A DNA stretch of 22,624 nt from IMG/VR virus record IMGVR_UViG_2521172589_000007; one strand, 5' to 3'. A program made the position numbers. This DNA comes from a virus (lineage: Duplodnaviria; Heunggongvirae; Uroviricota; Caudoviricetes). This document shows positions 6,001-15,000 of the stretch, one piece after another (the first letter of the stretch is position 1; each line of letters begins with the position of its first letter).

Positions 6001-9000
6001 ACTGATTGTTTTTGCGATTTGCCGCTGGGGGTAAAATAGTTCACCTGCATGGAGATTTGATGCCGGGGAATTGTGGGGAGCATTCAAACCTCTCCCCTTC
6101 CCGGTTAAAGACTCCATTGCTTTGCGGTCAGAGAGATACATCAGCTTCATCAGCTTAATGAAACGCATAGATCCGCCATGCTTTTTCAGCAAATACGCTG
6201 CCATTTGCGCAACTTTTTCTTCATTAAACATAAATCGGCTCTCTGTCTCACATGAAATACTCTTTCTGACTATATGTTAATAGCTCCGGTTATTACAGGT
6301 TAATGTGTGTTTATTTCTTAATCAGCCCCGCACTTCCGTACGGGGCCATTTCTGTTAATCCACTCCCACTTTTTTGTTGTACTCGCGGTTAAACCGATCC
6401 ACGGCAACCTTCATATCCCGCTCTACCGATTTCACCATCGCCGCCTGCTGCGCCAGACTGAGAGAACTGTCGGCATAAATGGCATCGCGCTGTTTGCGCA
6501 AATCCTTCAGTCTCTTCCGGGTATCCTGCATAAGCCCGTTCATCAACAATTTTCCGTTGTTCTCGTCAATGAACGCCGTTCTTTCTGCACCGGTCAGACT
6601 CTTCAGCTCTGCGTGATACTGCGCAACCTCTGTCATCCGGTCGTACATCTTCTGCTGGTCTGCATACGGCATCACCTCACCCGAAATTTTCCCCAGGAAG
6701 GGCACCTGCTGTTCCGGTATATCAATACCATTCAGCGATTTCACCGCCGCATCCGTGGTTTTGGAAATGAAGCGCCCTGTCCCTCCGGAGATATAGTCAA
6801 TCCAGAATTTCAGCGATTCCGGTGTGATATCCACCGCGCCGGGACGATACTGGCTGCCACCTGAGAACGCATTCAGCCAGAATGCAAACGCCTTGTACGC
6901 TTCTGGCGTTGAACGTCTTCCCAGCTGGCTGTCAGGTTTTGGTGTACCAAACGGCATGTTCTCCTGGTAAATCTGCGCCCCCATGAAGTTTTCGTTCATG
7001 GCAAGATTCGCAAACGGACGCAGAATTGTCGGTGCTGCATTTTTCAGCAATGCCCCGGACAGCGTTTCCGACGTCTCACTGCCAATCGGGCTGAATGCCC
7101 CCAGGATACCACCGACAACATTACCGGCAGCACGGGACGCCGTCAGGTCACCAGCAGCCACACCTTCAGAGGTATGCCCGAGCAGGAAGAAAACGTTGTA
7201 CCCGTAAGGCAGAGGAATACTCCAGTACTCTCCGGCCCTGCCCCCGAACATCGATTTCATAATGACGAGGTTACGCTCTTTCACATGATACGGCACCTTG
7301 TCGTACCAGTTAACCCCGTCATCATCCTCACCCGCCACACTGCGGTTAAGCGAGCCAAGCAGATAACCCGCTCCCACAGCTGCAAGCGCGATTTTCTGCG
7401 GTACATTGAGATTCTTCCAGCGAAGGCGCTCCAGTAACGGCCCGTCGCCATTAAGATGTCCGAGCGTTCTCACCAGGTTTGCGGTCCCCTGAATGCTGGC
7501 GTTGGCAAACATATACAGCGAGTTCATCAGCGCTCCCTGCTCACCACGACGGTTAAAGTTCACCGTCATGTTTTTGGCAAGAGATGCCGCCTGCTGGCGT
7601 GACAAACCGGCATCACGGGCGTGTTTATAGGCAGAAAGACGCAGAGCGTTTTCAACCGCGCCGTTGGCATCCTCGACCAGGTTCAGGAACGAATGCCATG
7701 CACCGATACTCTGGCCTTTCCATCCGCCCTTCGCCAGCGACACAAGGCGATCCATTTCCTTCTGCTGGCCTTCAAGGTCACCCATGTTAAACCAGCCGGT
7801 TTTACCTCCGTCCTCAACAAACTCTTTCCACACTTTCTGCCACTGTGCGCCTTTGCCCGTGAGGGTTTTACCCCGCAGACTTGCGTATACGGCTGACATG
7901 GCGGAACGGCTGTCTTTCACCACAGCCAGCGCGGATAAGTTATCCAGCCCTTTCAGTTTGCCGTCGCTTCTTCCCTGCTCAGCCTTCAGGTTCATCACCG
8001 CAGTCTGCACGTCACGGATGAAGTTACTGACCAGAAATTCCGGGTTATACGACGTGTTCACCGTTGCCAGGAAGCGGTTAACTTTCCCCAGCGTACGGAT
8101 TACGGCGTTACTGGTTTCCGGCCCCATGTTCTTCATCGCACGCATCAGGCGCGGATCATGAAGTTTAATGTAGTAAGTTTTGCCGTCCTTTTTGGTGGTG
8201 AAGTAGCGATCCGCCATCATTGCCATCGGCACAGGGCGCTCGACAACTTCGCGAATGGTTTCACCAGTTTCCTGGTCCTTGCGCTCTGCAATCACACGCA
8301 TTGTATCCGGTCTGTCATCAGTGAATACCTGCCAGTAATCCTTGTCGGGATTATCCTGTACCAGTTTCAGGAAGGCGTTACCCACTTCATTTTTGCGATT
8401 GCGGATCAGCGATTCACTCAAATCCTGTATCGCCTGAGTGGAAGGAGACTGTGCGCGGGATGCACGCCCCATGGCCTGCTTACTTTCACGCCCGCCGATG
8501 GTGAATCCCTTGCCTGTACGTGGCTGTGACACCACACCGTCAACATCCTGCCCTTTCAGGGGGACGTAGTAACGGTAGGCTTTCTGCCAGGCATCCACCA
8601 CGCCGCTCTCTTCCAGTCCTGCCTCACGGATAATCTCACGGCGACGGGCCAGCATATCGTCAATAATCCCTGCCAGACGGTCATACTGTGCCTGTTTGCC
8701 GCTGTTACGCACACGCTGCATGATTTCCGCCGCTTCCGCGTTGGTCATCCCCGAACCGCCGTCCGGCATTTTCGGGTTGATTTTCGCAATATGCGCGTTA
8801 CGTTCCGGCGCGTGACGGGCGTAGAGGTACTCATCCAGATCGGCCTGCGCAATTTTGTAGTCCGCCAGCAATTTGGCCAGCGGCTGAACGTAGCGCTCCT
8901 TCATTACGTTCAGGTCGTTTTCCGCCTTCCCGTGGAAGAGTTCTTCAGCCATATAGGCGTTATTGCTGTCATCTATTTTTCCGCCAGTTTTACGGATATT

Positions 9001-12000: not shown

Positions 12001-15000
12001 AAAGTCTTCAATTTTCGCACCACGCACCTGCTGGTGAGTGCTCGGTTTATCTACCGGCACCGGCACCTCAGTATCCGGAACATCGGTTATGGTCTGGCGA
12101 TTATCCCCGGTCTGTCTGCGTGCTTCTGCCTGCTGTGCCAGTTCCGGAAGGGAGTCACGAACCATACGAGGGAGTGATTCAGGCTGTGGCATATCAACCC
12201 CACGCTGACTTTCAGGTGCAGGAAGTCCTTCACGCACTGGTGCTGTGGCGTTCTGCTCATCCGGTGACGGCAGACCACGACGAACTGTTTCGCCCTCCAG
12301 TATTTCCCCCTGGCGACCAGCGGCATTTTCCGGTGCCTGCTCACGTCCTTTCTGGAAACTCTGGCCCTTCACCTCACCGGTTGTGGTAAAACGACCACCA
12401 CGTCCGGCCTGATTTTCATCCGGCGTACGCGCCACTTCTCCTGGTAACGGATATCCCTGTCCGGGATGAATATCGCCGGGAGCGGGAAGGCGTGGACGCT
12501 CAGTTAACTCCTGTGCTGTCGGACCGGCATCACCTTCAGCCATCTGGGAACGCACCAGTTCTTCCGCCGTCGGCGCGTTGCCACGGGCAAGACGGGCCTG
12601 CACTTCTGTATCATCCCCCGTAAAACCACGGAATCGCGGGTCACGCATGAACGCGGGCTGTTCCATCGGATCAGCATCAGTAATACGCTCTCCGTCAGCC
12701 AGAGTGTTAATGGTCTCCGTTGCCACATCTTCAGAGAACGCAGGATTATCCATTTCAACGGCATACTGATTCTCGCCTTTCTTCACTACGGACGGTTTCA
12801 GGCCGGTGGCGCTGGCATTGCGGAAAACGTCGCTCCCCAGAGCACTTTTTTCATCCGTGAAATAACGGTTGTCCGGACGCACCTTTTCAATGCGTTCTGC
12901 TGGTCTGGACGCACCACTCTCGTTAATTTCAATACGAACTTCATCCGGATCGCGGAACCGCACCGTCGGGTAAATACTCCCGTCGCCATCATCCGCATTT
13001 TCCGGCTGTGGCTGTGCCTCCGGTCTGGCCTCCCGCTGAGGGCGAAGCACATCACGTATTGCCTGTAACTGCTGCTCTTCAGTATCAGTACGCCCTTCCT
13101 TCTGGCTGAGTTTTCGGTATTCCTCAAGCAGTTCAGGGCGCGGCTTCGCCTTCAGCTCATCCATCACCGCCTGTCGCTTCGCCTGTTCATCCAGTTCATT
13201 CAACAGCTGGCTGGCGGCTTCCCGGCGATGAACGGCAGACGTGTCTCCCTCATGTGCCATATCCGCATCAGCATACTGTTCCAGAAGCTGCTCGCGATTC
13301 ATCCCCTGCATAGATTCACGATGCTGTGCCACCGGATCAACCGGTTCGGGTTGCGGAGCCGATTCGTCCTGAGGAACGCTTTCAGCCTCACGCATGGCTG
13401 CTTCATCTGCCGCCTGACGTTTTCCACGATATCCGGCAGCCGCACCGAATGGTGCCCCCATTGCAGCACCAAGGGCTGCACCTTCGATCGTTGCGTCAGC
13501 CACGCCCTCCCACGGTGACACATCCATTCCGGCGGTCTCACGCAATGCCGTGTTTTCCTGATAGCGTGAATAGCCACCCTGCGCCGCATTAATCGTCCCC
13601 TGTTCCGTGGCATTTCTGACAATGCCGCTTTTAACGGTCTTCGCCGTGCCCCGCATCGCCAGATTAAGCAACTGAGCATCGCCCAGTTTTGCCGCCATGG
13701 CATTCACAGCCAGCAATTCAGGATCGGTTGCCAGTTGCGCACGCACCTCATCGGCAACACGCTCTTTTGCCAGGTCCATTTTCTGGCGGTCAGTAAGCTG
13801 CGCGTGCTGCGGATCTGCATCAATTGACAAAAAGGTCTGCTGAAATTTCGGTGACTTCGCCAGCTCAGAATAATCCGCGTTAAGAACAGCATCTGCCGCT
13901 GCCATTGCACTCCGCCCTTGCGCACTGACAGTGGAATGGGTGATCAGGCCTGCCTGGAAAAAATCCGGCATTTTTTTATCGACAGCTTCGGCTGCCAGTG
14001 CTGTGGCTCTTTCCGGCTGCATCCCTGCCGCGATGTATTTTTTCTCCAGCCCGGCGGTCAGCACTTTTCGCAGAGTGACATCACCCAGCTTTTTAGTCAC
14101 ACCGCCTGCAACCATATCCGGTACAAGCGCACCAATCAGGTTAACCCCTTTCGCTACCCAGACCGCTGAATCATCATATCCTTCAGTCATCGGTGTATTC
14201 AGCGCCCGCTGCGCCCCCGGCGACATCTTGCCAGTCAGCCATTCATCCGAGGCTTTAGCGCCGCCACTGACTGCCTTGCCTGTGACCTTCAGACCTTTAC
14301 CGACAGTATCAGTAACCGCATTTTTTCCATCAGGCAGAGTGTCGATGACCTCATCCGCCCCCTTGCTGCCACCGACAAAAATATCCTGAACAGTTGCTAC
14401 TCCCGGCAGCCCCATACGGCTGAACTCATTTAAAATACGTGCCCCTGTTTTTACCGGGCTCTGAATCATCGCATCACCGAGTCCACGGGCCATTTCCCCT
14501 GTCCCCCGGACGGACTGGGCGACACCTTTCCCCATAGTTGGCAATACATCGCCCAGGCTGAACGACGTGCTGTTGTCCTTCCAGCGATTGGGATCGGAGA
14601 AAAACACATCATAGCTGTCAGTCTCTCCCGGCTGCTGAATGTTCAGGCTGTTGCGGCTCTGGTTGCCAAATTGCGCTTCAGGGCGCTGTTCATCGGAATA
14701 AGCCATACAGACTCCATAAAAAAACCCGGCACAATGACCGGGTATCAGGAAATAGTATTAACGGGAATGGTGAATTACTGCGCGTAATTCTGTTTCAGAC
14801 CACGGATAAACTCAGATGCAGAGGCCGCGCTATCATCCCTGGCCTGTTCCCCCCTGGCCTTTTGAATACGGAGAAAATTCGCATACCCGTGTTCCAGCAA
14901 TTTCTGATTCTGAGGCTCCAGCATTTCTGGCTGACGGGAGGCCACTTCTCTGGCAAATGCCTGCTTATCCGGATCATCACCCGCCCAACTGGTAATCCCT

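Follow-up and report, generated by a model that had tools for sequence, protein, structure and literature searches.

What does a phage do with a late gene of 8.35 kb whose product carries two metallopeptidase-type HExxH motifs? The question is raised by a 22,624-nucleotide stretch of viral DNA (Caudoviricetes; IMG/VR virus record IMGVR_UViG_2521172589_000007), referred to here in its entirety as the window, in which one giant open reading frame (ORF) of 2783 amino acids (aa) is by far the largest. A preliminary description, made from the sequence alone, had singled out this ORF and suggested that its product is a polyvalent protein. Our analysis leads us to propose, with a probability of roughly 0.72, that the product of the giant ORF is a polyvalent protein packaged in the capsid, which serves a 933W/phi24B-type T=9 podovirus as its pilot/ejection protein. 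The ORF and its two motifs are located as follows.

6355..14706, minus strand: giant ORF, 2783 aa; orthologue of Sp5 ORF80/ECs1242 and of phi24B gp47; phrog_616 over the full length; RefSeq WP_000331660.1
10873..10887, minus strand: HEWFH motif, aa 1274-1278, from a motif search of the translated ORF
10069..10086, minus strand: HEIIHH motif, aa 1541-1546, from a motif search (HEIIH, aa 1541-1545, occupies nt 10072-10086)

The frame opens with ATG and runs uninterrupted, and both motifs lie exactly where the preliminary description had placed them. Given the His and Glu content of the protein, chance would supply 0.04 HExxH motifs, against the two observed, and because each is embedded in a family-conserved context we do not regard either as fortuitous. 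The protein as a whole contains zero cysteines and 39 histidines. RefSeq names the product 'LPD38 domain-containing protein' (WP_000331660.1) and also 'LPD38/LPD5 domain-containing protein'.

The 8.35-kb gene is found at 90-96% nucleotide identity in 186 phage records, all of them from Shiga toxin (Stx)-converting or related short-tailed Sepvirinae phages. Sp5 ORF80 and the 933W and phi24B gp47 proteins match at this level over the full length, are likewise encoded after a 421-aa gene and have equal Pfam domains; the window copy differs in residing in a non-Stx prophage at ynfG and in its length (2783 aa versus 2793 aa in Sp5 and 2811 aa in phi24B). Short-tailed Stx phages spread Shiga toxin genes, and the giant gene makes up ~14% of their genome. 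The preliminary description had compared the gene's location with that of lambda side tail fibre genes and set it apart from the tape-measure position; these comparisons are inapplicable, the phage being a short-tailed T=9 podovirus whose relatives end their structural module with such a giant gene. Nor is the product itself a tape-measure or tail-fibre protein: its relatives are podoviruses, no fibre or tape-measure family was found in Pfam, fibre and needle are encoded by separate genes and gp47 is absent from the phi24B tail model. Its close homologues, the orthologues included, are the giant proteins of Stx podophages.

Work on these orthologues carries the proposal. Deletion of Sp5 ORF80/ECs1242 (2793 aa) leaves excision and DNA packaging in place but eliminates plaques and lysogens, and complementation restores function (Mondal et al. 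2016, PMC5155283). The phi24B orthologue gp47 (2811 aa) was found in purified virions, was noted to contain LPD5, LPD1, LPD38 and MuF-C, and is invisible in cryo-electron microscopy (cryo-EM) maps; a 2026 preprint proposes that it is an encapsidated ejection protein (doi 10.64898/2026.04.10.717836). In the supplementary table of that preprint, gp47 accounts for 10,962 peptide-spectrum matches (PSMs), second only to the major capsid protein, with a maximum in the top gel bands, and its peptides (residues 108-114, 489-512, 609-618, 711-722, 1548-1560, 2240-2259 and 2407-2414) fall at both termini, in the linker and in module 2. The presence in virions that the preliminary description had envisaged is therefore established for an orthologue. 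The orthologues are essential for infectivity and not for DNA packaging, are abundant in virions and lie outside the resolved shell and tail.

The Sp5 phenotype has a second side, on which a different reading builds. Mondal et al. view the protein primarily as a tail-assembly or completion factor, possibly catalytic, so that the enzymatic-looking modules would be secondary. Particles of the ORF80 deletion have DNA-filled, normal-looking heads that bind no anti-tail-fibre antibody (PMC5155283), deletions of the neighbours ORF70, ORF71 and ORF79 give the same phenotype, and the tail/structural module ends with the giant gene. We nevertheless consider this role unlikely to be the primary one, as phi24B gp47 appears nowhere in the resolved tail despite its second-highest PSM count, and the antibody result was reported as 'data not shown', while unstable tails without an internal core would look alike. 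The AAA+ ATPase domain (COG1483) published for Sp5 ORF80 (PMC5155283) was also not reproduced: the giant protein has no Walker A motif ([GA]xxxxGK[ST]) and matches none of the ATPase families of Pfam or NCBIfam at E<=1. The tail-assembly and stability role is kept alive because the missing tail-fibre labelling is unexplained by a pure ejection-protein model. Classical P22 ejection-protein mutants are not known to show such a phenotype.

Comparison with known systems places the protein among the polyvalent proteins, which were defined, together with the LPD1-40 families, the zincin 'MPTase' hub domain and the PBECR domain, by Iyer, Burroughs, Anand, de Souza and Aravind in 2017 (PMC5512222). 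Like these, it is giant and multi-domain, combines several unrelated domains, LPD families included, in one large polypeptide, has a late/virion gene context and contains the zincin MPTase hub and PBECR domains. Four of its Pfam families (LPD38, LPD5, LPD1 and MuF_C) were defined for polyvalent proteins. It differs in that its orthologue is essential for particle infectivity, which the concept does not require; the delivery and autoprocessing attributed to the family are themselves predictions. The polyvalent interpretation of the preliminary description is thus supported, and it is already present in the literature and databases, as earlier publications describe the gene family, show it to be essential and place its product in virions. 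What we add is detail on a known protein family and not a new kind of system: at the level of residues, a full zincin signature in module 1, the recognition of module 2 as a second zincin-like module, the relationship of the cassette to a conjugative-element protein, and the C-terminal body. The domain map is as follows.

13351..14706, minus strand: N-terminal module, aa 1-452; Gly/Ala-rich (26%), no Pfam family
12019..13350, minus strand: acidic Pro-rich linker, aa 453-896; from composition
11569..12018, minus strand: cassette start, aa 897-1046 (first residues KIEDFGEEIKGAAK); aligns with the N-terminus of stand-alone ~870-aa LPD5 proteins
11137..11568, minus strand: LPD5 domain, aa 1047-1190; PF18799, 4.5e-43; alpha/beta, high-confidence model
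10417..11136, minus strand: predicted zincin-like metallopeptidase module 1, aa 1191-1430 (Pfam 'LPD1', 1351-1430, lies within it); from motif conservation, Pfam and model
9727..10320, minus strand: predicted zincin-like module 2, aa 1463-1660; conserved H1541, E1542, H1545/H1546, W1579, Y1586, E1597 and E1604
9220..9519, minus strand: MuF_C/PBECR domain (BECR-fold, predicted RNase-like), aa ~1730-1829; PF18819, 64.1 bits against a cut-off of 27.6
6358..9099, minus strand: C-terminal module, aa 1870-2783 (914 aa); from model and homologue searches
6694..7311, minus strand: LPD38 domain, aa 2466-2671, within the C-terminal module; PF18857, 3e-46

The segment boundaries chosen in the preliminary description (1-430, 900-1460, 1460-1660, 1700-1870 and 1870-2783) agree with this map. 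Pfam matches on the giant protein are all above the Pfam cut-offs and comprise LPD38 (3e-46, residues 2466-2671), LPD5 (4.5e-43, 1047-1190), LPD1 (7.6e-23, 1351-1430) and MuF_C (1.4e-17, 1740-1829). The map also names the putative catalytic residues of two zincin-type modules, so that an uncharacterised giant protein becomes open to specific experiments.

Residues ~897-1660 are collinear, at 30-49% identity, with free-standing ~870-aa 'LPD5 domain-containing' proteins in which LPD5, zincin-1, LPD1 and zincin-2 follow in the same order, and whose consensus at the cassette start reads IEDFGEKIGGARKD... The two arrangements differ in that these proteins are free-standing and their module 2 carries HExxH, whereas the unit in the window is embedded between phage N- and C-terminal modules. 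One such stand-alone LPD5/zincin/LPD1/zincin-2 protein (877 aa; locus L005, 8001-10634) is encoded in a metagenomic conjugative element. Genes for TrbL, SLT and an M23 peptidase lie near it, as do those for a RelB/PIN toxin-antitoxin pair, for the reverse transcriptase of a group II intron and for an LPD7-fused MobA/MobL relaxase.

In module 1, H1253, E1255, H1274, E1275, H1278, D1281, E1365 and E1372 are conserved in all 75 distant homologues (75/75; <70% identity). The module shows the signature of an HExxH on one helix and a downstream Glu, the putative third metal ligand, on a second, the predicted helices being model residues 233-249 and 324-342. It matches the pattern of the phage-type MPTase clade of Iyer et al., in which strand 2 ends in a His and the third residue past HExxH is an Asp. 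The NCBIfam CLCA_X model covers aa 1172-1427 at 3e-45, which is below its cut-off. Because the LPD1 stretch contains the Glu helix (EMAARAFE), we infer that LPD1 is the C-terminal part of the module 1 peptidase and not a separate domain.

Module 2 is covered by no Pfam model, either in the giant protein or in 23 relatives, and a HMMER scan of 1.84 billion representatives with it returned 379 relatives, nearly all of them proteins of 1,500-6,000 aa. Across 166 homologous domains, H1541 is kept in 158, E1542 in 160, H1546 in 140, H1545 in 69 and E1597 in 161, and these residues are also invariant in a 23-sequence alignment. By these counts the family motif is predominantly HExxxH, with the second His mostly at +5 (H1546) and less often at +4 (H1545), matching the HExxxH MPTase variant of Iyer et al. 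The two forms follow the branches of the family, HExxH, with a one-residue indel, in the conjugative-element branch and HExxxH in the giant-protein branch; the HEIIHH of the giant protein satisfies both. A Glu helix lies downstream, as expected for an HExxH/HExxxH signature.

Structure prediction is consistent with these assignments. An AlphaFold2 model of aa 1040-1700, built from 49 sequences, has a mean pLDDT of 75.6; LPD5 and module 1 are modelled at high confidence, module 2 at moderate confidence. Each of the two modules is predicted to run from a helix through strands to the motif helix and then the Glu helix. For module 2 the model gives a helix, three strands, the HExxxH helix and the Glu helix, with pLDDT dropping to 35-70 past the motif helix. 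Foldseek comparison of the cassette model with the PDB returned nothing at E<=0.001, with anthrax lethal factor and AQ_1354 only at E 2-5. Against PDB sequences, three family profiles (A1, A2 and A3) found nothing meaningful, that of module 2 among them with no match, and a sequence search of the whole giant protein against PDB chains gave only chance matches (E>0.6). The fold evidence is supportive of a zincin assignment but not decisive, and the assignment of both modules draws mainly on motif conservation. The two metallopeptidase-type modules of the preliminary description stand in this form, as predicted zincin modules with family-conserved signatures.

Downstream of module 2, the MuF_C domain scores above its cut-off and retains the His and Ser pair, H1742 being kept in 46 of 46 distant homologues and S1806 in 45 of 46. 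Active PBECR domains have a His plus Ser/Thr pair, and MuF-C belongs to PBECR (PMC5512222). We regard MuF_C as a predicted BECR-type RNase-like domain and not a metallopeptidase. The phi24B preprint labels it 'MuF-C metallopeptidase' (doi 10.64898/2026.04.10.717836), which appears to be a mislabel because MuF_C holds the PBECR His and Ser pair and the zincin modules are located elsewhere. The domain map thereby corrects two statements in the literature on the orthologues, this label and the AAA+ ATPase assignment.

The correction bears on the suggestion of the same preprint that the metallopeptidase degrades peptidoglycan so that an extended tail conduit reaches the inner membrane. Zincin peptidases could in principle cut peptide cross-links, and Ralstonia and Burkholderia relatives of the giant protein have an N-terminal SLT lytic transglycosylase, so that wall breaching can be one job of this protein class. 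The preprint, however, assigns the peptidase to 'MuF-C', which is defined as BECR-fold and RNase-like (PMC5512222); the zincin clades occur also in conjugative-element proteins, and Iyer et al. discuss roles for them in autoprocessing or as effectors; and Pfam finds no SLT, lysozyme, M23 or NlpC domain in the giant protein. We judge a peptidoglycan-degrading function to be quite improbable.

Outside the cassette, the C-terminal 914 aa are modelled as one body, mostly helical with a beta subdomain (pLDDT 87.3, pTM 0.84), and PDB structure and profile searches found no solved structural homologue. This module is common to giant proteins of Vibrio, Ralstonia, Burkholderia and, in part, Bacillus phages, with 41% identity to a Vibrio podophage protein (3130 aa) and 27% to a Ralstonia GP4-like protein (4219 aa); the protein of Burkholderia CSP3 has 4647 aa. 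In the Vibrio, Ralstonia and Burkholderia phages the giant gene closes the structural module after a 440-520-aa protein, while the protein encoded before it in the window and in phage 86 has 421 aa. Two further parts of the window protein, aa 130-408 and module 2, have counterparts in the Vibrio protein. The cargo varies: SLT, an Eco57I-type methylase, a helicase and LPD3 in the Ralstonia and Burkholderia proteins, and ART-PolyVal or methyltransferases in metagenomic relatives of the C-terminal module. The DarB-like giants of the Bcep22-like (Lessievirus) and GP4-like Ralstonia phages accordingly resemble the window protein in being encoded by the last structural gene, preceded by a ~420-520-aa virion protein, and in their ~900-aa C-terminal module with LPD38 (27% identity), but carry SLT, Eco57I-type methylase and helicase (plus LPD3) where the window protein has LPD5, two zincins and PBECR and no SLT. 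Within the Lessievirus group, the giant protein of Burkholderia JC1 (gp69) is virion-associated by mass spectrometry; the C-terminal module was demonstrated in the related CSP3, and JC1 is linked to it by group membership.

These DarB-like annotations, together with the methylase and helicase domains of the same relatives, invite the view that the window protein is a dispensable anti-restriction or anti-defence effector of the DarB kind, injected to shield incoming DNA. A weak PHROG match to 'DarB-like antirestriction' (phrog_10089, aa 2344-2671) points the same way, as does the occurrence of the cassette in conjugative elements. That match is restricted to the shared C-terminal module, however, no N6-adenine methyltransferase or helicase match was found in Pfam or NCBIfam, and PADLOC gives no defence-system family. 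P1 DarB is dispensable on non-restricting hosts, whereas deletion of the Sp5 orthologue abolishes plaques and lysogenisation in the assays of that study even though DNA is packaged. The anti-restriction option of the preliminary description is thus unsupported, and we hold it to be highly improbable.

At the other end of the protein, the N-terminal module contains no known domain by homologue search or Pfam. Its aa ~130-408 are 29% identical to Vibrio podophage giant proteins; beyond Vibrio, the homologue search found only E. coli and Salmonella proteins. We propose that the N-terminal module is part of a conserved 'chassis'. The acidic linker that follows, reported earlier, is borne out by composition: aa 453-905 contain 89 D+E and 58 K+R, for a net charge of -31, with 9% Pro and zero Trp or Cys. 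The C-terminal end of the linker is the most divergent and most indel-prone part among Stx-phage alleles. The Gly/Ala-rich hydrophobic segments that had also been noted are present, although weak; on the Kyte-Doolittle scale the 19-residue means peak at 1.38 (aa 181-199) and 1.22 (aa 2435-2457), under the level of a confident transmembrane helix, and none was assigned.

A working precedent for a packaged and ejected giant protein encoded by the last gene is phage N4, with which we found no homology. N4 gp50 has ~3500 aa, is encoded last after two smaller ejection proteins (gp52, then gp51), is packaged and ejected and is invisible in virion reconstructions; its HExxH-bearing 'C1' subdomain precedes a large helical domain that has no structural homologues. 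It differs in that the window protein has no RNA polymerase family in Pfam. Homology of the C-terminal module to the gp50 C-terminal domain was rejected (hhalign probability 0.2%), and with it, given the Pfam result, an N4-type virion RNA polymerase; the N4 C1 subdomain gave hhalign probabilities of 14% against the cassette and 0.6% against module 2, neither of them significant.

From these elements we put forward the following model of a pilot/ejection protein. The chassis, common to the lineage, would combine aa ~130-450 of the N-terminal module with the LPD38-containing helical body of 914 aa at the C-terminus; a long acidic linker would let the protein pass extended; and the swappable cargo would comprise a conjugative-element-type LPD5/zincin-1/LPD1/zincin-2 unit (aa ~897-1660) followed by MuF_C. 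As shown in the orthologues, the protein is made late, is present in many copies in particles and is needed for an infectious particle. In the next step, protein inside the capsid would exit via the tail, ahead of or with the DNA, and help to build or extend a DNA conduit. The zincin modules might then cut the polyprotein or host targets, freeing cargo domains in the infected cell, where the RNase-like domain and LPD5 could act on host or defence components.

Several observations weigh against this model. Exit from the capsid or entry into the cell is a prediction for every orthologue, and encapsidation was deduced from absence in cryo-EM maps; the protease and RNase activities of the modules are likewise predicted from sequence. 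The loss of tail-fibre labelling in Sp5 without ORF80 suggests that the protein contributes to assembling or stabilising the tail. Since the giant protein has no confident transmembrane helices (Kyte-Doolittle) and no peptidoglycan hydrolase domain (Pfam), the latter unlike its Ralstonia and Burkholderia relatives, a conduit-forming role is not evident from its sequence. Searches by hhalign and against PDB sequences, profiles and structures found no homology to the N4 gp50 C-terminal domain or to any solved ejection protein. Finally, the window prophage has no integrase at the adjacent junction and has pseudogenes there.

A more far-reaching version of the model, which we advance only tentatively, is that the N-terminal module and the 914-aa body form an unrecognised, structurally novel 'delivery chassis' of T=9 Escherichia, Vibrio, Ralstonia and Burkholderia podophages into which whole effectors are spliced, the insert in the window protein being a complete conjugative-element LPD5/double-zincin protein and an RNase; after ejection, the zincins would cut the linkers, releasing cargo to the cytoplasm while the chassis stays at the envelope in the DNA conduit. 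If true, the protein would amount to a modular platform for protein injection that processes itself and that the phage cannot infect without.

Comparison of alleles reveals mosaicism within the gene. Relative to TL-2011c, aa 800-1100 are 65-69% identical at the nucleotide level, compared with 87-98% for the rest of the gene; relative to phage 86, aa 500-1700 are 98-100% identical and aa 1700-1800 (the MuF_C segment) 87%. Among Stx-type phages, the LPD5-module 1 segment falls into a group of 21 records at >=99% identity and one of 155 records at ~82%. The window gene carries the minority allele of aa ~800-1100 (window 11400-12300), TL-2011c being taken as an example of the ~82%-identity majority allele. 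Some deposited genomes have the giant gene split, as in TL-2011c (locus L008, 2254-10753) with two coding sequences, of 581 and 2263 aa, and PHROGs 26030 and 20690 are families of N-terminal 750-990-aa pieces only; frameshifts, sequencing errors or genuine truncations may account for these.

The window comes from E. coli O104:H4, where a prophage of the 933W/phi24B kind is inserted at ynfF/ynfG. Its left 6.4 kb match O104:H4 genomes from the 2011 outbreak lineage at 100% identity, and in strain 2011C-3493 the prophage interrupts ynfG beside ynfF. This prophage is not the O104:H4 Stx2a prophage, as the P13374-type giant gene is a separate copy, 97% identical over the C-terminal part. The features that flank the giant gene are these.

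1-2397, strand not given: ynfF (host); abuts the prophage end near the giant gene
~2408-2491, strand not given: truncated ynfG fragment at the prophage junction
5956-6231, minus strand: 91-aa ORF after the giant gene, on the same strand; ORF call
14724..14743, minus strand: terminator-like GC hairpin and T-run (7 bp stem with 5 GC pairs, then TTTTTTT), immediately upstream of the GGAG ribosome-binding site of the giant ORF
14775..16040, minus strand: upstream 421-aa gene; counterpart of Sp5 ORF79 and phi24B gp48 by position and length only

No integrase gene lies between the giant gene and the ynfF/ynfG junction; phage 86 instead has int after the giant gene. Early-type genes in window 1-6231 (Ant, DksA-like, DUF4752, Ea22 and DUF551) are oriented opposite, and RefSeq gives Ea22 in two fragments and lists a frameshift in a further ORF. 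Rearrangement or a defect of the prophage is possible.

The giant gene follows tail-tip, Lom and virion-protein genes on the same strand and holds an equal position in phage 86 and in the Vibrio, Ralstonia and Burkholderia phages. Its description as the last gene of the late operon is by gene order essentially right, with the qualification that the 91-aa ORF (5956-6231) follows and that the terminator-like hairpin precedes it. This hairpin might attenuate expression of the giant gene unless transcription is antiterminated. A second GC hairpin, with no T-run, lies after the giant gene's stop codon (~6324-6347).

The upstream 421-aa product is a candidate co-packaged partner of the giant protein. 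Its Sp5 counterpart ORF79 is essential (PMC5155283), and phi24B gp48 is present in virions and unresolved by cryo-EM (doi 10.64898/2026.04.10.717836). By analogy with N4 gp51 and gp52, the products of the upstream genes more generally are candidates for co-packaged or co-ejected partners. These genes (14775-17417, minus strand) encode 421, 83 (Gly-zipper), 150 and 218 aa; their apparent phi24B counterparts of 421, 86, 161 and 260 aa, matched by order and approximate size, are in virions and absent from the cryo-EM model, and the phi24B authors classed a small bacteriocin-like protein as a contaminant (doi 10.64898/2026.04.10.717836). Further along the minus strand, RefSeq places a Hok/Gef family toxin gene at 17967-18107, between Lom and a 133-aa ORF; in TL-2011c, Hok/Gef lies just after the giant gene. 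An ORF that runs off the right window edge (21340-22624, minus strand), to which RefSeq gives 541 aa, has a match in PHROG 511 ('internal virion protein') and precedes a tail-tip-fibre-like 422-aa gene.

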